Position numbers and translations under genes: made by a program
Notes under the pieces: model-generated
The model's database searches: none
The model's input: only the letters and a program-made list of their open reading frames with translations
What the model was told of the DNA's origin: nothing
NCBI GenBank assembly: GCA_024399195.1
Contig: JAKSHW010000051.1
Span: 1-13,165, forward strand
Origin: an archaeon
GTDB taxonomy: Archaea > Thermoplasmatota > Thermoplasmata > Methanomassiliicoccales > Methanomethylophilaceae
DNA length: 13,165 nucleotides
Direction: 5' to 3'
Shown: positions 1,636-13,165 of the stretch, piece by piece
How positions within the stretch are numbered: the stretch's first letter is position 1
Layout: the number at the start of each line of letters is the position of its first letter

Positions 1636-1657
1636 ACCCCTGAATCGATGTTTACAT

Positions 1658-1664
1658 CTTTAAC
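1658..1664 (-). promoter_or_regulatory. TATA-like TTAAAGA ending ~22 nt upstream of the suhB ATG (leaderless geometry)
   Basis: The same TCTTTAA (plus-strand) heptamer recurs at 784-790 upstream of apt. Spacing to the ATG matches that of the glnN element. Confidence 0.3.
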
Positions 1665-1700
1665 TACAATGTACAAAGTATGTAGAATAAATCCAACCTA

Positions 1701-1712
1701 ACCTGTACAGGT
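1701..1712. promoter_or_regulatory. 12-bp perfect palindrome ACCTGTACAGGT (14/16 over TAACCTGTACAGGTCA) between the end of the five-gene cluster and the suhB start
   Basis: It is its own reverse complement. It lies ~17 nt downstream of the SPFH-gene stop and ~66 nt upstream of the suhB ATG. The uninterrupted symmetry suggests a dimeric protein-binding site rather than an RNA hairpin. Confidence 0.4.
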
Positions 1713-1728
1713 CAGGCTGGAAATAGGT

Positions 1729-2967
1729 TTACTGGAGTTCTTCAGAACAATAGGGGCAGAACTTGGGGGTCTTTTTCAGACCGCTGAGGTCCTGTCCGCA
1801 GTAGGGGCAGTTCTTGAACATGGTGTTTCCACCTGCGGCAGGTGCTCCCTGTGCAGGCTGGGGGCCGCCCATGGGTGCTCCGGGCTGGGGCTGTCCATAT
1901 CCCATCGGCTGTTGCTGGTACATTCCCTGCTGGGGCTGCTGACCATAGCCCATGGGCTGCTGGTACATTCCCTGCTGAGGCTGTCCGTATCCCATAGGTG
2001 CTCCGCCCTGCTGCTGCATGGGGGAAGGCCTTCCGCAGTTTCCACAGAACTTGTAGGGATATTCGTTGAGTGCACCACAGCTGGGGCACATGACCTTCTG
2101 GGCCTGGGGCTGTTGTGCCTGCATCTGCTGCTGTTGTCCCATGACCCCGTTGACAGGCTGCTGGTTGAGCTGCTGGTACATCTGGGGGAACAGGAGCATT
2201 CCTGCACCCATCGCTGCACCGCCCTGGGAGTTTCCGATGGCGTCTGCCATTCTGTCCATGACCTCATACCTCTTGAAGGCCTCACCGTTCGCACTGCTGA
2301 ACTGGAGGTACTGGAACACTTTCTCTTTCTCTTCCTCGGTGGTGGAGACCTCGTTGATCTTCAAGGAGAGGAGTTCGATACCCCTCTGCTGGAAGTAGGG
2401 GTCCACGAGGATCTTGGTGGAGGTAGATGCGAGCTCGAGGTTGTTGAGCACTTCCATGTAGTACTGCTGGGAGAGCTGTTGGGTGATCTGCTCGTTGATG
2501 AAGCTCTTCATGAAGGCATTGACGTTTCCGGTGCTGAAGCTCTTCATTCCTCCGAGGACCTGGGTGTAGAAGACGGAGGTGTCCTGGATACGGAACTGGT
2601 ACTCTCCGTTCGCCATGAGGGTGATGGGGACCTCGTACCCTTTGGCCGCCTTGATCATTCCTCTGATGCCCCACTTTCCGTTGAACATCTTCAACGAGAT
2701 GAAGACGATCCATACCTTGAAGGGGGTGTCCTTGTAACCGAGGAGTTTGTTGTAGAGGGAGGTGAGCCAGGGGATGTTGTTGCTGGAGATGGTGTGTCTT
2801 CCGGGTTCGAGGACCCCCTGGAGCTGACCGTCCTTGATGAAGAGGGCGACAGCGTGCTCGGGGACGGTGACGGAGGTCACTGTCCTGAGGTCGTCGTCAG
2901 GGGATACGTAGATTATATCGTCGGGGCCCTGGTTTGCCCAGAACACAACATTGGTTTTGTCTGCCAT
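1729..2967 (-). CDS. SPFH/Band-7 family protein (Band_7_1 / B. subtilis YdjI-like) with a C-terminal Q/G/Y/M/P-rich low-complexity region and two Cys4 zinc ribbons, 412 aa
   Basis: The N-terminal ~245 aa (nt 2233-2967) look like the soluble SPFH 'virion-core-like' family (…FIKDGQLQGVLEPGRHTISSNNIPWLTSLYNKL…WIVFISLKMFNGKWG…). aa 246-292 are Q-rich. aa 294-311 are CPSCG…CGNCG. aa 316-378 are PMGYGQPQQGMYQQ repeats. aa 387-407 are CPYCG…CPYCS. Only 5 nt separate it from the upstream gene (translational coupling). Confidence 0.85.
   Translation of the reverse strand: MADKTNVVFWANQGPDDIIYVSPDDDLRTVTSVTVPEHAVALFIKDGQLQGVLEPGRHTISSNNIPWLTSLYNKLLGYKDTPFKVWIVFISLKMFNGKWGIRGMIKAAKGYEVPITLMANGEYQFRIQDTSVFYTQVLGGMKSFSTGNVNAFMKSFINEQITQQLSQQYYMEVLNNLELASTSTKILVDPYFQQRGIELLSLKINEVSTTEEEKEKVFQYLQFSSANGEAFKRYEVMDRMADAIGNSQGGAAMGAGMLLFPQMYQQLNQQPVNGVMGQQQQMQAQQPQAQKVMCPSCGALNEYPYKFCGNCGRPSPMQQQGGAPMGYGQPQQGMYQQPMGYGQQPQQGMYQQQPMGYGQPQPGAPMGGPQPAQGAPAAGGNTMFKNCPYCGQDLSGLKKTPKFCPYCSEELQ
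1884..2022 (-). repeat. imperfect tandem ~45-nt repeats (about 3 copies) inside the SPFH gene, encoding oligopeptide repeats PMGYGQ(Q)PQQGMYQQ(Q)
   Basis: The plus strand shows repeated cccat(c/g)ggctg…tggtacattccctgctg(g/a)ggctg units. On the minus strand they encode MGYGQPQQGMYQQP, MGYGQQPQQGMYQQQP and MGYGQPQPGAPMGG. Confidence 0.7.
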
Positions 2968-2972
2968 TTATT

Positions 2973-3509
2973 TCACTGCTCCACAAGTCCTTTCATGACG
3001 TTGTCTCTCTGGCGGTATGCATCGATGAGGATGTCCACAGACCTTTCGACGTTCCTGAGGTCGGATTTGATGTCGTTCCCATCGTCCGCGTTGTTCATAA
3101 GGGTCTCGGTCGCCTCTTTGAGCATCTCCACACCGTCAATCAGCTGTGCGTCCCAGCTCACGAGGTCGTCCAGCTGGCTCTCAAGTATTTTCATGGAGTC
3201 GCCGAACCCGCTGTATCCTGCGACACCTTTCTTGACGTCGCTGTAGTAACGGTCGACCTTGCTCCTGACCCTTTCCATGTCCCTCATTGCCTGAAGGTCG
3301 CCCACGGTGGCCCTTGCGGCATTGGACAGGTCGGTCTTAGCTCCTCCGATCACTTTGGCGACGACGTCCCTGATGGCCCTGTCCTCGTCCCTGCGGAGGT
3401 TCTTCTGCTTGTATCCCCTGTAGAAGGGGATGTACATCTTGATCTTCTCGCCGAGACTCATTCTTCCTGCTATCGCCGCCTCGGCGCTGTTCTCGAGATT
3501 GTTAGTCAT
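2973..3509 (-). CDS. hypothetical coiled-coil protein, 178 aa, with a basic N-terminal half and an acidic C-terminal half
   Basis: The ORF lies 9 nt downstream of the preceding gene and 5 nt upstream of the SPFH gene, on the same strand. The sequence is predominantly helical and charged (…RDEDRAIRDVVAKVIGGAKTDLSNAARATVGDLQAMRDMERVRSKVDRYY… then …LESQLDDLVSWDAQLIDGVEMLKEATETLMNNADDGNDIKSDL…). The start is ambiguous: ATG at 3509 (weak SD) or the in-frame ATG at 3461 preceded by AGGAAG. Confidence 0.7.
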   Translation of the reverse strand: MTNNLENSAEAAIAGRMSLGEKIKMYIPFYRGYKQKNLRRDEDRAIRDVVAKVIGGAKTDLSNAARATVGDLQAMRDMERVRSKVDRYYSDVKKGVAGYSGFGDSMKILESQLDDLVSWDAQLIDGVEMLKEATETLMNNADDGNDIKSDLRNVERSVDILIDAYRQRDNVMKGLVEQ

Positions 3510-3518
3510 TTCAACAAC

Positions 3519-3899
3519 TCAGTATTTCGATTTCTTGCTGTTCGTAAGTCCTGCACAGAGTCCGATGAGGGCGATTCCGATGAGGAACACCGCTACATAG
3601 ACGAACCAGTCCACACTGAAGGAGTAGAGGACGGCGACGATTCCCACTAGTACGAGGATCGCACCGAACACCATACGGTACATGCTTTCGGAAGGTCCGA
3701 ACTTGTCGGGGGTCTTGCTGTAGGTCAGGGATACCACAATCATCGCGGCACCGAAGATAAGCAGGAAAGCCCCTACGGTTGCACCGACGCCGAGGTCGGT
3801 GAGACCATAGATGAGGACCGCGGCCGCGATAGAGATCAGCAGTGCCGCCAGCATGAAGACCTGGCTGGTCCTGTATTTGTTTCCACTGTTGGTTGACAT
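3519..3899 (-). CDS. small integral membrane protein, 4 predicted TM helices, 126 aa
   Basis: There are four ~20-aa hydrophobic stretches (VFMLAALLISIAAAVLIYGL; VGATVGAFLLIFGAAMIVVSL; MVFGAILVLVGIVAVLYSF; WFVYVAVFLIGIALIGLCAGL). A strong SD AAGAGG lies 8 nt upstream. Short gaps separate it from its neighbours. Confidence 0.75.
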   Translation of the reverse strand: MSTNSGNKYRTSQVFMLAALLISIAAAVLIYGLTDLGVGATVGAFLLIFGAAMIVVSLTYSKTPDKFGPSESMYRMVFGAILVLVGIVAVLYSFSVDWFVYVAVFLIGIALIGLCAGLTNSKKSKY

Positions 3900-3927
3900 G
3901 TCTTTGCCTCTTTATGTTGGAATTGTT

Positions 3928-5475
3928 TTAGAGTAAGATGAGGTTTTCCAGATTGGTCTTCGGGATGCAGTCAGGCAACAGGTTCTTGAAGTCGCCGTTG
4001 GGGGTCAGACTGTTCCCGGATCTGGTGAACGGAACGTAGATGAGGCCTCTGATCTCGGGGTTGACGAGTTTCAGTTTGTTGTCACTGGAACTTATCACCT
4101 GCAGGTAGTTCTCCGCCTGGCGTTCGGCCTCCCTCTTGGTACTGAGGGGGACGATGATGGCCCTTCCACTGATACCGTTCTGTGCCACCGATTTGCAGAT
4201 GCTGTCCACCGGTCCGCTGCTGGTGATCTTGCTTTCGTTTCCGGTGAGTCCTGCGAGGAATCCGTTTCCGCCGTTGGCCTTGAAGACATCGGTGACGGAT
4301 TGCTGGGGGTTGGAGAGGCTCTGTGCGTCTATGACGAAGTTCGCGGAGATCAGGATGGAGTCCTGGACCTCCACGGTGCGTTTCTTCCACATGGTACCAG
4401 TCTGGAAACTGTATCTGAGCTCCACGTCCCAGAATGGCACGAGGACATCTCCGGACCCTGCGGCGATCGCCACGGTGCCTTCTCCGGATTTGGCCTTTAT
4501 GCATGCGGACAGGTTGGAGAGGATCTCCCCGTTCCTGTTCTTATCGTTGAGCATGAACGCCCAGTTACCCTGTGCGGGATAGTGGTAACCGAAGATTTTC
4601 CTGACTGCATCGAATACTTCCCTGGACCCTCCGAGGCTGTTGACGTAGGATGTGAGCTCGATGAGGGACTCGGAGATGACGAGCTCCTGTTTCACGGCCT
4701 GTCCCATGACAGCCACCTTGAGGTTGCCCATAAGTTTGGAGGAGGCCTCCTTGAGCTTTGCATTACCCTGTTGGAACAGGTTGTATGCGGTGGGCACGTC
4801 CCCGTTCATCAGGCTCTCGCCACCCTGGCAGAGAAGTGCCAGTCCTGCAAAGCGGAGAGCCGCAGGCTCGTATCCGGCGGCCCTGGAGAAGTCGTCGGAC
4901 GCCGTCACGAAGTTGTTCATCATGAGGATGAACCTTCCGGGTTTGTCCTCTCCCATCAGGGTGATGTTGTTGATGAGCATCGCATACGCATCGGAAACGT
5001 ACATGGCCTCGGAGAGGATGGTGTTGCTTTCCTGGCTCATCGCGAGAGGGGATACCTCTTTCATTTTGGCACCGAACTCGAACACGGCGGAAGGGGTGTG
5101 GTTGGCCTTCACACTGTGGTCGGTGCTGAACGGCATGACCATCATGCAGTGGGACAGGACGGATATGAGTCCGAACTTGAGCTGGGAGAACTCCTGGTCG
5201 ATCCTGGGTTTGATGTTGGTCATGAAGATGTTGTGCCTTGCGACACTGTCGACGCTCTGTGAGGCCGCCATGGACATTCCTCCGGGGACGGCTTTGTTGA
5301 TCCAGGAACGGACCTGTCCCATGAGCTGGTCGAGGTAGGCCTGGGCATCGAGCTTCTGCTGGGTGGTACCGCAGCTGGAGCAGGTGACGTAGGGGGAGTC
5401 TTCTTTGAGGTCTTCCGCATCGAGAGGTGCACCGCAGTATTTGCACCTGAGTGCGGTCATCGTTTCCAATCCCAT
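3928..5475 (-). CDS. hypothetical protein with an N-terminal Cys4 zinc ribbon (CKYCG…CSSCG, nt ~5371-5445) and a large domain of unknown family, 515 aa
   Basis: It is a long ORF with GC3-biased codon usage like its neighbours. An SD GAGGAA lies 7 nt upstream. The ATG sits 1 nt after the stop of the upstream gene. The C-terminal half is G/S/T/N/V-rich and probably beta-rich. I could recognise no catalytic motif. Confidence 0.8.
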   Translation of the reverse strand: MGLETMTALRCKYCGAPLDAEDLKEDSPYVTCSSCGTTQQKLDAQAYLDQLMGQVRSWINKAVPGGMSMAASQSVDSVARHNIFMTNIKPRIDQEFSQLKFGLISVLSHCMMVMPFSTDHSVKANHTPSAVFEFGAKMKEVSPLAMSQESNTILSEAMYVSDAYAMLINNITLMGEDKPGRFILMMNNFVTASDDFSRAAGYEPAALRFAGLALLCQGGESLMNGDVPTAYNLFQQGNAKLKEASSKLMGNLKVAVMGQAVKQELVISESLIELTSYVNSLGGSREVFDAVRKIFGYHYPAQGNWAFMLNDKNRNGEILSNLSACIKAKSGEGTVAIAAGSGDVLVPFWDVELRYSFQTGTMWKKRTVEVQDSILISANFVIDAQSLSNPQQSVTDVFKANGGNGFLAGLTGNESKITSSGPVDSICKSVAQNGISGRAIIVPLSTKREAERQAENYLQVISSSDNKLKLVNPEIRGLIYVPFTRSGNSLTPNGDFKNLLPDCIPKTNLENLILL

Positions 5476-5476
5476 T

Positions 5477-6397
5477 TCAATTCCTCATGTTCGCTATGCG
5501 CCTTACGGATTCGATCTCTGCCCTGAGCTCCCTCTCGGTGGCCCTGAGCTGTCTGATGGATTCGTCGTAGTATGCGCGGGAAATGTCATCGGACCTGTTG
5601 GAGATGGCGGTGTAGCAGGGTACGCAGACATACACGGAGTTGCAGTCGTCCGAGATGGGTTTGATGATATCGTTCTCGGTACTGGTCCTGAACACGGGAT
5701 TGATAGTGCTCCTCATGGCCATGAAGTGGATTCCTTCCCCGTTGACCGGTCTTCCGCAGATCCAGCATTTCGCGGACCTTGCGTATTTGTTCATGAGGTC
5801 CAGGTCGTCCTCACCGGAATCACCGACCTGTCTGCGGAAGTTGTACGCCATCTGCATGTATTCGGAACCCTGTTTGGGATCTTCGGCGACTACTCCCTTT
5901 CCCATGATCTCGTAAGCCTGAGCCTGGAGGATAAGGGATTCCCTGGACGCGGTAGACATGGTGTTCCCTTTGAATGCCTCGTCGAATTTGAGGGGGGCGT
6001 CACCGAGCATTGCGAACTGCATTGCGACATTGATGTAGGCCTGTCCCTTCTCCATGTAGTTGCGGTCGTCCATGCCTGCGGCCTTGATCTCCTGGATGAG
6101 GAGTTCGCACTCGGTCTTGAGGGCTTCGGTATCGATCTCGGTGAGTCCGAATTTGAAATTGGAAGCGCCGCAGTTAGCGAGCTTTCCGTTGAGGGCGGCA
6201 TATCTGTTGGCATCGCCTCTGTTCTCTCCGACCTCGATGAACGCTATGTACATCTCGGCCATTTTCTCTTTGCCGTCGCATCCTTTCTTTAGAGCGGCTT
6301 CCAGATTTTTCTTGGCTTTGGAATACTCTTTTCTGCCGATCTGGTCGATCGCATCAGTGTAGAGTTTGGATCCTTCTTTGAAGAATGATAATACCAT
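5477..6397 (-). CDS. hypothetical protein with an N-terminal helical-repeat (TPR/MIT-like?) region, an internal Cys4 motif (CWICG…CVPC, nt ~5615-5767) and a C-terminal coiled coil, 306 aa
   Basis: It is the first gene of the minus-strand cluster. An SD AAAGGTG precedes the ATG and a TATA-like ATTTTAAAAG lies about 39 nt upstream. The N-terminal region has amphipathic-helix repeats (KLYTDAIDQIGRKEYSKAKKNLEAALKKG…). The C-terminus reads YYDESIRQLRATERELRAEIESVRRIANMRN. Confidence 0.8.
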   Translation of the reverse strand: MVLSFFKEGSKLYTDAIDQIGRKEYSKAKKNLEAALKKGCDGKEKMAEMYIAFIEVGENRGDANRYAALNGKLANCGASNFKFGLTEIDTEALKTECELLIQEIKAAGMDDRNYMEKGQAYINVAMQFAMLGDAPLKFDEAFKGNTMSTASRESLILQAQAYEIMGKGVVAEDPKQGSEYMQMAYNFRRQVGDSGEDDLDLMNKYARSAKCWICGRPVNGEGIHFMAMRSTINPVFRTSTENDIIKPISDDCNSVYVCVPCYTAISNRSDDISRAYYDESIRQLRATERELRAEIESVRRIANMRN

Positions 6398-6432
6398 GGT
6401 GCACCTTTGTTTTTCATATGTTTTTACAGGCT

Positions 6433-6440
6433 TTTAAAAT
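6433..6440 (-). promoter_or_regulatory. TATA-like element (ATTTTAAAAG on the minus strand) for the five-gene cluster
   Basis: It is centred ~39 nt upstream of the ATG at 6397. That would give a short 5' UTR carrying the SD AAAGGTG. Confidence 0.4.
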
Positions 6441-6633
6441 CTGTGACTGGGTCTTCTGCTGTTGCTTCTCTCATTTCCAGAATGTAGGTCTCCTTCAGGG
6501 GCACCATTCTGACCGAATATCCAATATCTTAATGAATTTTTCTTGATAATTAGACAAATGTCTAAGATTATCCAATCTAATTAATCGAATATACATTTAC
6601 TATTGAGTTAACCCACCATTTTATCGGTTGTAT

Positions 6634-6649
6634 CAGAAAACTATATTAA
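6634..6649 (+). promoter_or_regulatory. BRE-like (cagaaaac) plus TATA-like (tatattaa) element positioned for a leaderless glnN transcript
   Basis: tatattaa (6642-6649) is centred ~25-26 nt upstream of the A of the glnN ATG (6671). It is immediately preceded by the purine-rich cagaaaac. No SD is present before the ATG. Confidence 0.5.
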
Positions 6650-6670
6650 CTACCGTTTAGAGTACCAGCT

Positions 6671-8860
6671 ATGTCCAACGTGAGATTCGATGCCGTTCAG
6701 AAGGCGAACGCGAAGACCCCCGTCATCGCCGTCGCCCCCGCTATCGAGACATCCACCTACTATGGTTGTAATGTTTTCAACAGAGCCGCTATGAGGAAGT
6801 ACCTTTCCGAAGAGACCCGTAGGGCCATCTACGAGACCATCGAGAACGGCGCCACTCTCGAGAAGGACGTCGCAGAGCATGTCGCGGCCGGAATGAAGAG
6901 ATGGGCCCTCGATATGGGAGCCACTCACTACACCCACTGGTTCCAGCCACTCAACGGAGGTACCGCGGAGAAGCACGACTCCTTCGCCGATCCCCGCGGA
7001 CGTGACGAGTCCATCGAAAAGTTCAGTGGAAAGCTTCTTTGCCAGCAGGAGCCCGATGCATCCTCGTTCCCCTCCGGAGGTCTCAGGAACACCTTCGAGG
7101 CAAGGGGTTACACCGCATGGGACCCCTCTTCCCCCGCGTTCATCATGGGAGACACCCTCTGCATCCCCACCGTTTTCATCTCCTACACCGGAGAGGCACT
7201 CGATTACAAGGTCCCCCTCATGAAGTCCGATGCGGCGGTCACCAAGGCGGCCTCCGAGATCCTCGCATACTTCGGTCTCGGGAAGGAGGTCGTCCACTCC
7301 TACCTCGGATGGGAACAGGAGTACTTCCTCGTCGACAAGGAGCTCTATCTCCAGCGCCCCGACCTGATGCTTACCGAGCGTACCCTCATCGGACACTGCA
7401 GTTCGAAGAACCAGCAGCTCGACGACCACTATTTCGCAGCGATCCCCGAGCGCGTGAAGGAGTTCATGAAGGACCTCGAGTTCGAGTGTTACAAGCTCGG
7501 AATCCCCGCTAAGACCAGGCACAACGAGGTCGCACCTGGACAGTTCGAGCTCGCTCCCGTATACGAGGCGGCGAACCTCGCCATCGACCACAACCTGCTC
7601 CTTATGTCCGTCATGAAGACCCTTGCAAAGAAGCACGGCTTCGAGGTCCTTCTCCACGAGAAGCCCTTCGCAGGCGTCAACGGATCCGGAAAGCACTGCA
7701 ACTGGTCCATCGGAACCGAGAGCGGTATCGGGCTTATGTCCCCTGGAAAGACCGATGAGGAGAACCTCAGGTTCTTCTGTTTCATGGCCAACACCCTGAA
7801 GGCTGTCTATGACAACAACGCCCTCCTCAAGGCCTGCGTCCTCAACGCCTCCAACGCACACAGGCTCGGTGCCAACGAGGCTCCCCCTGCGATCATCTCC
7901 TCCTTCCTCGGAACCCAGATCTACGATGCGTTCGAAGAGATGCTCAACTCCACCGAGATGGTCAAGCTCGCCGGAAAGAGGGGATTCAACCTCGGTATCT
8001 CCCAGGTCCCCGTCCTTCAGGTCGACAACACCGACAGGAACAGGACCTCTCCCTTCGCGTTCACCGGAAACAGGTTCGAGTTCAGGGCCGTCGGTTCCTC
8101 TGCGAACTGCTCCGGACCCATCACCATCCTCAACACCGCCCTCGCATACCAGCTCAAGCAGTTCAAGGTCGCGGTCGACAAGAGGATCGAGGCCGGCGAG
8201 GACGTGTTCCACGCCATCCTCAACGAGACCCGTGAGACCTACAGGGCGTCCAAGCCCATCTGTTTCAACGGAAACGGATACTCCGACGAGTGGAAGGCCG
8301 AAGCGAAGGCACGCGGTCTTGACTGCGAGGCGTCCGTGCCTCTCGTGTACGACGAGTACACCTCCGAGCGGACCGTCAGGATCTTCGGAGAGATGGGCAT
8401 CCTTTCCCCTGTCGAGCTTGCGTCCAGGAAGGAGATCTTCTGGGAGATATACTGCAAGAAGCTCGGAATCGAGGCCAGGACCCTCTGCGATCTGACCACC
8501 AACCACATCATCCCCGTCGCCATCAGGTACCAGAACATCCTCATCGAGAACGTCAGGAACCTCAAGGAGATCTGCGGAGACAACGTCGAATCCTTCAAGA
8601 GGATGTCCAAGACCCAGATGGACCTCATCGGATGCATCTCCGACGATATCTCCTGTGCGGAGAACACCGTGGACGATCTCGAAGCGGTCATCGACGAGCT
8701 TTCCGCAAAGGGTGAGGGTCGTGACGTGGCCATCAGGTACCACGACGAGGTCACTCCTATGCTCGAGAAGATCAGGTCCCACGTCGACTCTCTGGAAATG
8801 ATGGTCGACGACCAGATGTGGCCTCTTCCCAAGTACAGAGAATTGCTCTTCATCCACTGA
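6671..8860 (+). CDS. glnN: glutamine synthetase type III (GlnN), 729 aa
   Basis: The length (729 aa) is the GSIII hallmark. Collinear GSIII-specific blocks: THYTHWFQPL, FSGKLLCQQEPDASSFPSGGLRNTFEARGYTAWD, LCIPTVFISYTGEALDYK, GWEQEYFLVD, KTRHNEVAPGQFELAP, HEKPFAGVNGSGKHCNWS, NRTSPFAFTGNRFEFRAVGSSANC, and the C-terminal WPLPKYRELLF. Confidence 0.93.
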   Translation: MSNVRFDAVQKANAKTPVIAVAPAIETSTYYGCNVFNRAAMRKYLSEETRRAIYETIENGATLEKDVAEHVAAGMKRWALDMGATHYTHWFQPLNGGTAEKHDSFADPRGRDESIEKFSGKLLCQQEPDASSFPSGGLRNTFEARGYTAWDPSSPAFIMGDTLCIPTVFISYTGEALDYKVPLMKSDAAVTKAASEILAYFGLGKEVVHSYLGWEQEYFLVDKELYLQRPDLMLTERTLIGHCSSKNQQLDDHYFAAIPERVKEFMKDLEFECYKLGIPAKTRHNEVAPGQFELAPVYEAANLAIDHNLLLMSVMKTLAKKHGFEVLLHEKPFAGVNGSGKHCNWSIGTESGIGLMSPGKTDEENLRFFCFMANTLKAVYDNNALLKACVLNASNAHRLGANEAPPAIISSFLGTQIYDAFEEMLNSTEMVKLAGKRGFNLGISQVPVLQVDNTDRNRTSPFAFTGNRFEFRAVGSSANCSGPITILNTALAYQLKQFKVAVDKRIEAGEDVFHAILNETRETYRASKPICFNGNGYSDEWKAEAKARGLDCEASVPLVYDEYTSERTVRIFGEMGILSPVELASRKEIFWEIYCKKLGIEARTLCDLTTNHIIPVAIRYQNILIENVRNLKEICGDNVESFKRMSKTQMDLIGCISDDISCAENTVDDLEAVIDELSAKGEGRDVAIRYHDEVTPMLEKIRSHVDSLEMMVDDQMWPLPKYRELLFIH

Positions 8861-8875
8861 TCAGGGTGATTCCTG

Positions 8876-11800
8876 ATGAACAGCAAGATCGGTCTTTACG
8901 ACCCCGCAGACGAGAGAGACTCCTGCGGTGTCGGAATGGCTGTAAACATCAACGGGGTCAAGGACCACGGAGTCGTCGAGTACGGTCTCCGTCTCCTTGA
9001 AAACCTCGCCCACCGTGGGGCGGAGAACGCGGACGGCAGTACCGGAGACGGATCCGGTATCACCGTCCAGATCCCCCACGATTTTATCGTCAAGTGCGGA
9101 ATACCGGTTCCGGAGGCCGGCAGGTACGGTACAGGTCTGGTGTTCCTTCCTAAGGACAAGGAGAAAGCTGACCGCTATCTGGACGTTCTGAAAAAGAAAT
9201 GTTCGGAACTGGCACTGTCTGTCATAGGTTTGAGGGACGTTCCTGTGGACGGTTCGGTACCTGGTCCGTTGGCACAGGAGTCCGAACCCTATATCGTGCA
9301 GGTCTTCGTAAGCAGTTACGATTCCCAGGAAACTCTCGAGAGGAAACTGTACACCGCAAGGAAGAGGACCAGCAACTCCATAGACGACCCCGAGTTCTAC
9401 ATCTGCAGTCTTTCCACCAAGACCATCGTCTACAAGGGTATGTTGACGCCTGAACAGATACGCAGATACTATCTCGATCTGGAAGACCCAGAGTTCAAAT
9501 CCGCCATTGCGATGGTCCATTCCAGGTTCAGCACCAACACCGCTCCCCGTTGGAAACTCGCGCAGCCTTTCAGGATGCTGTGCCATAACGGTGAGATCAA
9601 TACGATCAACTCCAACCGTTCCTGGATGGCCGCCAGGGAAGGTGTCCTCGGAACTCCTCGGTTCCCTAAGATGGATACCGTCTATCCCATTATCCAGGAA
9701 GGAATGAGCGACAGTGCGTCCCTTGACAACGTCTTCGAGTTCTTCACCCAGACCGGCATGTCCATGGAGAACGTCATCAGTTCGATGGTCCCCGAATCCT
9801 GGAACAGTAAGAACCCGATCCCCGATTCTCTCAAAGCGTACTATGAATACAATTCGATATTGATGGAGCCTTGGGACGGTCCCGCCGCAATCCTCTTCAC
9901 CGACGGAACCTACGCAGGCGGACTTCTCGACAGGAACGGACTCCGTCCTGCGAGGTATTCCATAACCTCCGACGGTCTCTTCATCATAGCGTCCGAATCG
10001 GGTGCGGTGCAGATCGACGATTCCGAGATCGTGGAATCCGGAAGGTTGATGCCCGGCAAGATGATGCTGATCGACACTTCCGAGGGAAAGATCCATTACA
10101 ACGACAGCATCAAGTCCTCGCTTTCCTCCGCCTATCCTTACAGGGATTGGTTGGAGAAGAACCGTATCGATCTCGGCGACGTATCCTCGGGACGTACCGT
10201 AGGACGTGAGGTGGAGAACATGGAGAGGCTCATGGCCGAGTTCCTCTACGACAAGGAGGACATCGAGAAGGTCATCCGCCCTATGGTGGAAGGTCTCAAG
10301 GAACCCGTCTCATCCGCAGGAAGCGACATCCCTCTGCCGTTCTTCTCTGATAAGCCGCAGCTGTTCTTCAACTATTTCAGACAGAACTTCGCACAGGTCA
10401 CGAACCCTCCTATCGATCCGATACGCGAGGAGCTCGTGATGTCTTTGACGGGATACATCGGGTCGGTCCACAACAACGTCCTGATGCCTACCCCCGACAA
10501 CTGCAAGATCATCAAGGTCAGGCACCCCATCATAACCAACAGGGAGCTGGACCTTCTCAAAAACCTCAGGTACAGAGGATTCGGTACCGCCGTGATCCCG
10601 ATGCTGTTCGATGTGTCGAAGGGGGAGGAAGGTCTCAGGGAGGCCATCGAGGCCATGTGCCAGAAGGCGGAACATGCAATAGATTCCGGTGATTCGTACA
10701 TCATCCTTTCAGACCGTATGGTCGATGAAGGACATGCCGCCGTCCCGTCCCTGCTTGCACTTTCCACCGTCCATCAGTATCTCGTCGAATGCAAGAAAAG
10801 GCTCAAGGGCGGGATCATTGTCGAGACCGGAGAGGCCAGGGAGGTCGAGCACATCGCACTCCTGTTCGCATACGGTGCCAACCTTGTGAACCCCTATCTC
10901 GCATATGCGGTCGTAGAAGAGCTTTGCAGGAACGGAAAAGTCGGTTACGACGCCGATTCCGCAGAATACAGGTACAACCGTGCACTCGAGAAGGGTCTTC
11001 TGAAGATCATGTCCAAGATGGGTATCGCGACCTTGCGTTCGTACCGTGGTTCCCGTCTGTTCGAGGCCATCGGTCTGGACCAGGCCTTCTGTAACAGGTA
11101 CATGTACGGTACCGCGTCCCATATCGGCGGCATCGGTCTCGGACAGATCGCGGAGGACACGGTCGCAAGACACAAGGCGGCTTTCGACGGGTCCGCATCC
11201 ATCAACCTTGACAATGGTTACTACAATTACCATAAGGACGGGGAGAGACACGCCTGGAACCCCGAATCCGTAAGGCTCCTCCATGAGGCCGCCGAGGATA
11301 TCGCGAAGTATCCCGCGTTCCAGAAGAAGATCGACCAGGACAACGGTCTGTTCTTCATCCGCGATCTGATGGATCTGAAACATGGTGAACCGGTTCCGAT
11401 GGAAGAGGTCGAATCCGCCGAGGACATCGTCAGACGTTTCGTCATAGAGGCCATGTCCTTCGGTGCCATCAGCAAGGAAGCCCATGAGACCGCCGCCGAG
11501 GCCGCGAACCTGATGCATTGTCAGAGCAACTGCGGTGAAGGCGGGGAGGATCCCGCTCGTAACAGTTCCTGTCGCCGCTCCGTCGTCAGACAGGTCGCAT
11601 CTGCAAGGTTCGGGGTCAACGCAGAGTATCTCGTCAATGCGGACGAACTCCAGATCAAGGTCGCACAGGGTGCAAAGCCCGGTGAGGGCGGTCAGCTTCT
11701 TGCGTTCAAGGTGGATCCCGTGATCGCTGCCACCAGGCATACGATCCCTGGGATCACCCTCATCTCCCCTCCCCCGCACCACGATATCTATTCCATAGAG

Positions 11801-13165
11801 GATCTGAAACAATTGATCTTGGATCTCCGTGCGGTGAACCCCAAGGCCAGGATCAGTGTCAAGCTGGTCTCCGAGGCAGGTGTCGGTACCGTTGCATCGG
11901 GTGTCGCCAAGGCCGGTGCCGATATGATCCTCATATCCGGATCCGATGGAGGTACTGGAGCAAGCCCCATGTCCTCCATGAGGTACGCAGGTCTTCCCTG
12001 GGAGCTCGGATTGGCCGAAGCCCAGCAGGCGTTGGTCTCCAACGGCCTCAGGGGAAGGGTAAGACTTCAGGTGGACGGTCAGATCAAGACCGGTATTGAT
12101 GTCGTCATCTCCGCCCTGTTGGGTGCAGAGGAATATGGTTTCGCAGCGGCGGTCCTCATCTCCATGGGGTGTATGATGTGCCGCAAGTGTCAGACCAACA
12201 ACTGTCCTGTGGGTATCGCCACCCAGGACCCCGCAAAGCGTGCGAGGTTCAAAGGAACCGTCGATAACGTCAGGAACTATTTCCTCGGTGTCGCAGAGGA
12301 TGTAAGGAGATATCTGTCCGTAATGGGATTCAGGTCTCTCGATGAGATCGTCGGAAGGGCGGACCTTATCGTGCGTAAGGCCGTGGACGGCAGGCCCTCG
12401 ATGGTAGACATATCCGACATCATCGCCGTGGCCGAGGGGCAGAGGACCTTCAACGAGGGACAGCCCGACGTCCTCAGCGGAATGTTGGACAACAAGTTCA
12501 TCGCAGATGCAACCGCATCCATAGGCCGTAACGGCGGAAAGGCGATCCTTTCCTACTCCATACGCAACATCGACCGTTCCGTAGGCGCGATGCTTTCCGG
12601 TGAACTGCTCAGACGCGGCGTCAACCTGGAGGACGATTCGCTTACCGTGAAGTTCGATGGAACCGCAGGACAGAGTTTCGGTGCGTTCCTTACCAGGGGT
12701 GTGACCTTCGTTCTGAAAGGTCAGGCCAACGATTACGTGGGAAAGGGTCTTTCTGGAGGAAAGATAGCAATTTCCCGTAACGGGTCCGAACCTAGGATCA
12801 ACGTCATCGCCGGAAACACCCTGCTGTACGGGGCGACCGCCGGAGAACTCTATGTGGCCGGAAGGGTCGGAGAAAGGTTCTGCGTCCGTAACAGCGGAGC
12901 TATCGCAGTGGCAGAAGGTGTAGGTGACCATTGTTGCGAGTATATGACGGGAGGACGTGTGGTGGTACTAGGCTCCTGTGGAAGGAATTTCGCTGCAGGT
13001 ATGTCCGCAGGTATCGCCTATGTCCTTGACGACGACGGTGATTTCGACCGTCACTGTAACATGGACATGGTGGAATTGGAACTCGTGGAATCCTTGGAGG
13101 ACAAGGCGGAACTGAGGTCTATTCTCGAGAACCATGTACGTTACACAGGCAGTGCAAAGGCATCC
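8876..13165 (+). CDS. gltB: glutamate synthase (GOGAT) large subunit, fused GltB type, 3' partial (1430 aa inside the window; continues past the window end)
   Basis: Frame 2 is open from the ATG at 8876 to the last base, so it is absent from the ORF track. N-terminal Ntn-amidotransferase domain (DSCGVGMAVN…HSRFSTNT). FMN-domain motifs (GEGGEDP; KVAQGAKPGEGGQL). 3Fe-4S cysteine cluster (CMMCRKCQTNNCPVGIATQDP). C-terminal GXGXXG-type domain (GGRVVVLGSCGRNFAAGMSAGIAYVLD). SD-like GGTGAT 7 nt upstream. Only 15 nt after the glnN stop. Confidence 0.93.
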   Translation, partial: MNSKIGLYDPADERDSCGVGMAVNINGVKDHGVVEYGLRLLENLAHRGAENADGSTGDGSGITVQIPHDFIVKCGIPVPEAGRYGTGLVFLPKDKEKADRYLDVLKKKCSELALSVIGLRDVPVDGSVPGPLAQESEPYIVQVFVSSYDSQETLERKLYTARKRTSNSIDDPEFYICSLSTKTIVYKGMLTPEQIRRYYLDLEDPEFKSAIAMVHSRFSTNTAPRWKLAQPFRMLCHNGEINTINSNRSWMAAREGVLGTPRFPKMDTVYPIIQEGMSDSASLDNVFEFFTQTGMSMENVISSMVPESWNSKNPIPDSLKAYYEYNSILMEPWDGPAAILFTDGTYAGGLLDRNGLRPARYSITSDGLFIIASESGAVQIDDSEIVESGRLMPGKMMLIDTSEGKIHYNDSIKSSLSSAYPYRDWLEKNRIDLGDVSSGRTVGREVENMERLMAEFLYDKEDIEKVIRPMVEGLKEPVSSAGSDIPLPFFSDKPQLFFNYFRQNFAQVTNPPIDPIREELVMSLTGYIGSVHNNVLMPTPDNCKIIKVRHPIITNRELDLLKNLRYRGFGTAVIPMLFDVSKGEEGLREAIEAMCQKAEHAIDSGDSYIILSDRMVDEGHAAVPSLLALSTVHQYLVECKKRLKGGIIVETGEAREVEHIALLFAYGANLVNPYLAYAVVEELCRNGKVGYDADSAEYRYNRALEKGLLKIMSKMGIATLRSYRGSRLFEAIGLDQAFCNRYMYGTASHIGGIGLGQIAEDTVARHKAAFDGSASINLDNGYYNYHKDGERHAWNPESVRLLHEAAEDIAKYPAFQKKIDQDNGLFFIRDLMDLKHGEPVPMEEVESAEDIVRRFVIEAMSFGAISKEAHETAAEAANLMHCQSNCGEGGEDPARNSSCRRSVVRQVASARFGVNAEYLVNADELQIKVAQGAKPGEGGQLLAFKVDPVIAATRHTIPGITLISPPPHHDIYSIEDLKQLILDLRAVNPKARISVKLVSEAGVGTVASGVAKAGADMILISGSDGGTGASPMSSMRYAGLPWELGLAEAQQALVSNGLRGRVRLQVDGQIKTGIDVVISALLGAEEYGFAAAVLISMGCMMCRKCQTNNCPVGIATQDPAKRARFKGTVDNVRNYFLGVAEDVRRYLSVMGFRSLDEIVGRADLIVRKAVDGRPSMVDISDIIAVAEGQRTFNEGQPDVLSGMLDNKFIADATASIGRNGGKAILSYSIRNIDRSVGAMLSGELLRRGVNLEDDSLTVKFDGTAGQSFGAFLTRGVTFVLKGQANDYVGKGLSGGKIAISRNGSEPRINVIAGNTLLYGATAGELYVAGRVGERFCVRNSGAIAVAEGVGDHCCEYMTGGRVVVLGSCGRNFAAGMSAGIAYVLDDDGDFDRHCNMDMVELELVESLEDKAELRSILENHVRYTGSAKAS

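Follow-up and report, generated by a model that had tools for sequence, protein, structure and literature searches.

What is encoded by a compact run of five genes, the last of them for an SPFH protein, in an archaeon of the Methanomassiliicoccales, an order of methanogens from the gut? SPFH proteins are universal and their working is poorly understood. The genes lie on contig JAKSHW010000051.1 (assembly GCA_024399195.1) of a Methanomethylophilaceae genome, and the window analysed is the whole stretch of DNA, i.e. the entire 13,165-nt contig of this metagenome-assembled genome (MAG). All five open reading frames (ORFs) are on the minus strand and, in the order of reading, are gene A (306 aa, 5477..6397), gene B (515 aa, 3928..5475), gene C (126 aa, 3519..3899), gene D (178 aa, 2973..3509) and gene E (412 aa, 1729..2967). 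The gaps between them, 1, 28, 9 and 5 nt, are those given in an initial annotation made by eye, which saw in the cluster a candidate membrane-scaffold system with a logic like that of Psp and ESCRT. The operon probably encodes an SPFH scaffold complex that associates with the membrane, an archaeal version of the YdjI-type systems without PspA. Its centre appears to be an ancient two-gene core of archaea and bacteria, comprised of a Band_7_1 SPFH protein with two C-terminal zinc ribbons (E) and, encoded upstream of it, a partner of about 175 aa predicted to fold as a four-helix bundle (D).

By tblastn and ORF extraction, the order A-B-C-D-E is kept in 85 of 85 Methanomassiliicoccales loci wherever the contig is long enough. 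Protein identity across these loci is 30-60%, the spacing is similar and short, and the flanking genes differ: BRNA1 has type-III glutamine synthetase (GS III) and chaperone genes there, other loci RuBisCO-like/IF-2B or P-type ATPase genes. The same order among different flanks points to a conserved operon and not to a chance arrangement; the five genes are thus best read as one tightly coupled operon, as initially proposed. Homologues of A and B accompany Band_7_1 SPFH genes in the 85 loci, a co-occurrence that the initial annotation had put forward as a check. The loci were retrieved out of 119 matching species genomes: a scan of one genome per GTDB species gave relatives in 119 stretches; among the matches listed, each either has a Methanomassiliicoccales title or is a mis-binned contig with a bacterial label. 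For protein B, 166 homologues were found at 39-60% identity, and all those with a source name are Methanomassiliicoccales/Thermoplasmata (Methanomethylophilaceae, Methanoplasma, Methanomassiliicoccaceae, BRNA1). A single operon match was present per contig retrieved, and sequence identity declines in step with lineage, which suggests vertical inheritance and not a variable defence island. Archaeal operon contigs under bacterial bin names include L010, L012, L058, L060, L062, L066, and L068 (Faecalibacterium, Acutalibacteraceae, Bacteroides ovatus, Lachnospiraceae, Ruminococcus, Firmicutes bacterium, and Bifidobacteriaceae); these labels are likely bin contamination. A deep-branching relative, L174, encodes a second, shorter Band_7_1 paralogue (283 aa) beside a VCA0040-like membrane protein (L174:1363-3117), just upstream of its own A-B-C-D-E cluster.

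Protein E is a YdjI-type SPFH protein, having a Band_7_1 domain and two zinc ribbons. It matches Pfam PF13421 (Band_7_1) over residues 26-219 (nt 2311-2892, minus strand, as are all features of A to E given here) with 85.5 bits against a cutoff of 24 (E 5e-24), and DZR with an E-value of 2.7e-6, the DZR/Zn_ribbon matches lying at residues 291-312 and 386-411. No hydrophobic or transmembrane (TM) segment was found in E by hydropathy scan, consistent with its first description as a soluble Band_7_1 protein. In an alignment of 47 homologues the SPFH domain is followed by a conserved Gly-rich hydrophobic segment (residues 245-267, nt 2167-2235), a Q-rich stretch, ribbon 1 (C294/297/308/311, nt 2026-2097), a variable linker, which is here of low complexity and rich in Q/G/P/Y (nt 1819-2025), and ribbon 2 (C387/390/404/407, nt 1735-1818). 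The cysteines of both ribbons are invariant in the homologues. The GYGQPQQGMYQQ stretch between the ribbons, which had been counted as a prion-like domain of the system, is by the same alignment a linker expansion of this contig only; homologues have a P/A/Q linker of 20-30 aa in its place. A search for solved structures of E-type SPFH proteins returned none at E<=0.01. The Gly-rich segment after the SPFH domain is nearly invariant (GGAAMGAGMLLFPQMYQQL; homologue consensus GGAAMGxGMLLFPQMYQQL). It is recognisable in bacterial homologues too (GxGxGxGMxLxP), is covered by no Pfam model, and may be a membrane-dipping or oligomerisation element.

Protein D (NCBI MJZ68_04820) had been described as a charged coiled coil and left, together with A and B, without a family. 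Its AlphaFold2 (AF2) model shows no extended coil but a compact four-helix bundle, with a predicted local distance difference test score (pLDDT) of 83.2 and a predicted template modelling score (pTM) of 0.77, and its sequence relatives place it in a large uncharacterised family of archaea and bacteria. An exhaustive hidden Markov model (HMM) search of 1.84 billion cluster representatives (50%-identity clusters) with the D profile gave 1,191 proteins at E<=1e-3, of which 541 also pass E<=1e-10. Members are in nearly all cases 165-185 aa long and are matched end to end, and those with names come from Anaerolineae, Bacillota, Nitrososphaerota and Thermoproteota/Bathyarchaeia; no relatives of D were found in viral contigs. 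Two motifs run through the family, [IV]PG[FY]xGY[KR]EKExRR[ED]xD..R and GY[ST]GFFDxVKVxExxLD....FD, and read PxYRGYKxKNLRRDEDR (N-terminal) and GYSGFxDSVKIxE (between helices 2 and 3) in gene D. No Pfam family was matched by the D of the window. It does match the NCBIfam model NF047596 (LIMLP_15305 family) at 29.2 bits (E 7.5e-7, positions 26-173 of 175), and other D-family members match nearly the full 175-position model at 30-63 bits (best E 2.8e-17). As the curated cutoff is 210 bits, D is a distant relative and not an equivalog member of NF047596. LIMLP_15305, a hypothetical protein of Leptospira, itself appears in the literature solely as a locus tag in an RNA sequencing table.

Comparison with PspA and ESCRT-III profiles had been suggested for D, and membership in that superfamily was borne out neither by sequence nor by predicted fold. 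PspA_IM30/Snf7 gave no match to the D of the window at E<=1 and is absent from the 25 most-matched Pfam families of 61 D-family members scanned, the hhalign probability for the D family against PspA is 0.3%, and the fold of the model is not that of PspA/ESCRT-III (a long alpha1-alpha2 hairpin with shorter alpha3-alpha5). Within the family, the D domain also occurs fused to other parts, as TM-D, as zinc ribbon-low complexity-D, and as D-DUF4178 (DUF4178 E-values of 2e-16 and 5e-20). One family member, P0210 (258 aa), has a zinc ribbon at its N-terminus and then, before the D domain, a low-complexity linker rich in P/T/Q, a layout that mirrors the linker and zinc-ribbon tail of the SPFH partner.

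Beyond the order, loci of the D family were examined on three Thermoproteota-type contigs, in an Anaerolineae, a Bacillota and a Nitrososphaerota MAG, and in 80 metagenomic loci, the last obtained from a narrow D alignment and biased toward one Bathyarchaeia-like clade. In every locus long enough to show it, barring two PspA contigs, D is directly upstream of a Band_7_1/zinc-ribbon gene (L086-L090, all of L091-L170 that are long enough, and L173-L174). In most loci the spacing between D and E is 0-5 nt or the two overlap; in one bacterial locus it is up to about 35 nt. A zinc-ribbon protein of 247-275 aa, here called B-mini, precedes D in 68 loci and in the Nitrososphaerota locus L173. The two PspA contigs, L171 and L172, are bacterial and show the order [D-DUF4178]-[PspA_IM30]-[Band_7_1], and DUF4178 is known to accompany PspA in operons (PMC11237479). 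This makes the D family a genuine member of YdjI/Psp-type neighbourhoods. Among the loci examined PspA is present solely in L171 and L172; it is absent from the vicinity of most D-E modules and of every archaeal one examined. In L173 the module comprises B-mini, D, E, a C-like protein and a 509-aa secreted protein.

Protein C, the putative membrane anchor, shows four hydrophobic segments in a hydropathy scan, and A, B, D and E show none; C is the 4-TM mini membrane protein of the initial annotation. C-like 4-TM genes follow E in Bathyarchaeia-like loci (C-HMM E-values from 1e-7 to 4e-15) and, with a weak match (E 0.002), in the Nitrososphaerota locus. No C-like gene was found in the bacterial D-E pairs examined. 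Pfam searches with C recognised no channel or transporter family and gave sub-threshold MFS-like noise. Two related Methanomassiliicoccales loci, L056 and L080, are without gene C, and their D carries a basic C-terminal extension. In both, D (L056:8565-9152 and L080:4289-4876) is 195 aa long with the extra tail …PETEKEGIVNKLKNKLR, possibly a direct membrane-binding substitute for C. In the Anaerolineae MAG (L089:939-3410), two genes come before D-E, one for a DUF2207 membrane protein (635 aa, with a Gly-rich tail) and one for a 172-aa protein with a C-terminal zinc ribbon and two TM segments; in bacteria these may be the membrane-anchor analogues of C and B.

Proteins A and B resisted placement by sequence, as they had by eye: Pfam, NCBIfam, PADLOC and PDB profiles gave zinc-ribbon and TPR noise only. 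Protein A consists of a TPR-like motif (residues 8-42, where a PDB profile search matches TPR repeats alone), a helical region, a Cys4 zinc ribbon and a C-terminal coiled-coil-like tail. The Cys4 site (C211/C214/C258/C261) is invariant in 46 homologues. A has no Pfam or PADLOC match, no MIT domain was matched in it by Pfam or PDB profile search, no relationship to B, D or B-mini was found, and it occurs in Methanomassiliicoccales-type loci alone. Protein B begins with a zinc ribbon (residues 9-40, nt 5356-5451; C11, C14, C32, and C35, invariant in homologues). In its AF2 model (pLDDT 83.7, pTM 0.71) the ribbon is followed by an all-helical TPR/Bro1-like domain of about 290 residues (41-330, nt 4486-5355) and a C-terminal alpha/beta domain (335-515, nt 3931-4473). 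Against B-mini, the zinc ribbon and first helix of B are significant (hhalign 94%) and the rest is not; the two C-terminal domains have a common PFW/YxF-like motif, with a score that is not significant. Cys4 ribbons in three products, with a pair of ribbons in the SPFH protein, had been read by eye and stand, the sites in A, B and E being invariant.

In Foldseek searches the helical domain of B has its closest fold matches among Bro1 domains, the top probabilities of 0.85-0.87 being those to HD-PTP and BROX, with E-values that are not significant; MIT domains are also listed. By sequence, Bro1 (PF03097) was not matched in B at E<=10 and is not among the 25 most-matched families of 28 B homologues, and the PDB profile search with B returned no Bro1 entry. 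B as a Bro1 protein by sequence was rejected, hhalign against the PDB-verified ALIX Bro1 sequence giving 0.1%. The Bro1-like solenoid is thus a fold-level lead, drawn from a predicted model, and not a family membership. No catalytic domain was found in A-E in Pfam, NCBIfam or PADLOC scans, as had been anticipated, and none of the five proteins matched a PADLOC-DB family at E<=1. The DUF4178 (PF13785), MIT and YdjG-type models with which comparison had been recommended match none of the five (Pfam, PDB profile searches), nor does TPM_phosphatase (Pfam).

The flanks of the operon are unrelated housekeeping genes. On one side, divergent from the operon, are GS III and a glutamate-synthase-like ORF running off the contig; on the other are an inositol-monophosphatase-family (IMPase) gene and an adenine phosphoribosyltransferase (APRT) gene. 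GS III (729 aa) is at 6671-8860 (+), a flank that is also present in BRNA1 (L001). The ORF beyond it (8870-13165 (+), at least 1,432 aa) has an N-terminus that by eye resembles the large subunit of glutamate synthase, so the two would be a glutamine synthetase-glutamate synthase (GS-GOGAT) pair. Antisense to them are stop-free minus-strand ORFs at 6650-8857, 8861-10096, and 10709-12931 (735, 411, and 740 aa), which look like shadow ORFs and not genes (G/V/D/R/H-rich composition). Signals at the ends of the operon agree largely with what had been read by eye. A TATA-like element, ATTTTAAAA, is at 6432..6440 (-), 35-42 nt 5' of the ATG of gene A, and is a putative operon promoter; TTTTAAA is the sole TATA-like match on the minus strand of 1650-6700. 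Shine-Dalgarno-like purine runs, said to precede each gene, are present before A (GGTG), B (GAGGA), C (AGAGG) and E (GGAG), and D has only a weak one (TGAG). A hairpin with a 13-bp stem and a T-rich tail (1692..1721 (-)) directly follows the stop codon of E and is a putative transcript end.

The known system nearest to hand is pspA-ydjGHI of Bacillus subtilis. YdjI comprises an SPFH domain, a stretch of low complexity and a C-terminal zinc finger, with no TM segment (PMC8581546). Its localisation needs the membrane proteins YdjG and YdjH, and it is required for PspA foci and recruits PspA (PMC8581546, PMC11237479). YdjG has two zinc ribbons, an NTF2-like domain and a TM segment, and YdjH a TPM domain and a TM segment (PMC11237479). 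The likeness lies in E itself, which like YdjI is a Band_7_1 SPFH protein, soluble and equipped with a low-complexity stretch and, at the C-terminus, a zinc ribbon, in an operon that joins the SPFH gene with small membrane protein(s) and a zinc-ribbon protein, and in the occurrence of the D family with PspA and Band_7_1 in some bacteria. However, PspA is absent from the archaeal operon and its flanks, the five proteins include no TPM-domain YdjH, B differs from YdjG in that it carries a single zinc ribbon and a large helical domain and is without a TM segment, and D, A and C are without a counterpart described for the Bacillus operon. The best reading is that the system is related to, and works like, the YdjI/Psp-type SPFH systems, though with neither PspA nor the YdjG/YdjH partners. 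SPFH-NfeD and HflK/C operons likewise pair an SPFH gene with a small membrane protein, presumably for a membrane-proximal oligomer, but E has no TM anchor, the operon has no NfeD/OB-fold partner or protease, and the partner is a four-helix bundle.

On the favoured reading of a PspA-less SPFH scaffold, D and E would form a stoichiometric complex. The two most conserved D motifs are predicted to meet at one end of the bundle and would be the interaction surface. Such a core complex is suggested by near-universal adjacency, frequent start/stop overlap, and co-variation across the domains of life. C would tether the complex to the membrane much as YdjG/YdjH do for YdjI in Bacillus, an analogy that is joined by the TM-D fusions and by the basic D tail where C is missing. 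B, through its TPR/Bro1-like solenoid and alpha/beta domain, and A, through its TPR-like motif and coiled coil, would be lineage-specific zinc-ribbon adaptors recruiting or organising further partners. We infer a likely role in organising or maintaining the membrane or in stress protection, which would fit the housekeeping context, the wide single-match-per-contig occurrence and the lack of a cell wall, which these archaea are not known to have.

Several points weigh against this reading. Neither the window nor the flanking DNA of any archaeal locus was found to carry a PspA/ESCRT-III gene; support for the Psp/ESCRT-like logic of the initial annotation comes from the bacterial D-DUF4178/PspA/Band_7_1 contigs and the fold-level likeness of B to Bro1. 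The D-E and C-E contacts and those of A and B are drawn from gene adjacency, and all five genes are known here only from their sequences. C could be a client, e.g. a channel regulated by an SPFH ring, and not an anchor. Relatives of A and B outside the order were not detected, save for the zinc-ribbon region of B, and their role is therefore the least constrained. One Nitrososphaerota locus, L173, has a defence-island-like context unlike the housekeeping flanks elsewhere, its flanks (L173:1-4723 and 11937-12531) carrying DUF87, SbcCD-like, N6/N4 methyltransferase and GmrSD genes.

There are several other explanations. If C is a client, the operon could encode an SPFH cage, in which E with D rings the 4-TM C or a different membrane protein and regulates how active it is or how fast it turns over. 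Oligomeric cages that enclose membrane clients are common among SPFH proteins, as in HflK/C-FtsH and stomatin-channel pairs, and C-like 4-TM genes adjoin E in three archaeal lineages. However, neither a protease nor an NfeD domain turned up in the operon or near it, C could be assigned to no channel or transporter family, and the bacterial D-E pairs examined have no C-like gene; a cage is considered unlikely. A closer kinship with Psp and ESCRT-III takes two forms. In the strict form D itself is a highly diverged polymer that the SPFH protein recruits to the membrane, with B as a Bro1-like and A as an MIT/TPR-like binder of its C-terminal helix. It is true that D is all-helical and adjoins a YdjI-type SPFH gene, that YdjI recruits PspA in Bacillus, that the helical domain of B is closest to Bro1 with MIT domains also listed, and that closed ESCRT-III is a helical bundle as well. 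Against this stand the failure of PspA_IM30/Snf7 to match D or to enter the top 25 Pfam families of the 61 members, and the hhalign result of 0.3%; moreover, D and PspA are separate genes side by side in L171 and L172, i.e. they co-exist and are not substitutes, which counts against D as the polymer. A slim chance is left for it. In the other form the helical domain of B is a true prokaryotic Bro1 counterpart, and the operon is an SPFH platform that recruits to the membrane an ESCRT-III-superfamily protein, PspA- or CdvB-like and encoded elsewhere. Compared with eukaryotic Bro1 domains (ALIX, HD-PTP, BROX, yeast Bro1), B adds a zinc ribbon and an alpha/beta domain and has no sequence similarity, and no ESCRT-III/PspA partner of B was found in the window or the archaeal flanks; this form is improbable, though marginally less so than the strict one.

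The context of L173 would suit a module for defence against viruses or for abortive infection, one that upon infection would damage the membrane or seal it, with its SbcCD-like, methyltransferase and GmrSD neighbours; the want of enzymatic domains and the plausibility of zinc-ribbon sensors would agree with such a module too. None of the five proteins has a PADLOC match, however, and the Methanomassiliicoccales flanks are housekeeping genes (GS/GOGAT, APRT, IMPase, chaperones, RuBisCO-like). At least 119 species genomes of the order carry the operon, there is one match per contig retrieved, identity tracks lineage, and the D family was not met in viral contigs, all of which makes a defence role very improbable. 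Finally, A-E share no domains, as would be expected of five unrelated genes adjacent by accident. Such an accident is effectively refuted by the conservation data, since order and spacing are kept in 85 loci at 30-60% identity with differing flanks, and D adjoins E in both archaea and bacteria; hardly any weight remains on it.

The literature searched has no description of the D-E core or of its archaeal versions with four and five genes. The D family spans more than 1,000 50%-identity clusters with no Pfam model and no literature, and its gene is tightly linked to an SPFH gene. To our knowledge only one study, in Bacillus, describes the soluble YdjI class, and D and E together offer a concrete, testable core for how this class works. 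If B were a Bro1-like adaptor, the adaptor logic of ESCRT-III would be extended to a euryarchaeal, host-associated methanogen lineage; if it were a Bro1 counterpart proper, there would be an archaeal ESCRT-III/PspA adaptor layer besides the Cdv systems of Asgard and TACK archaea, and D and E would stand as an SPFH co-factor module that is universal and had gone unrecognised. For the archaea themselves, presumably without a wall, membrane maintenance should be critical.

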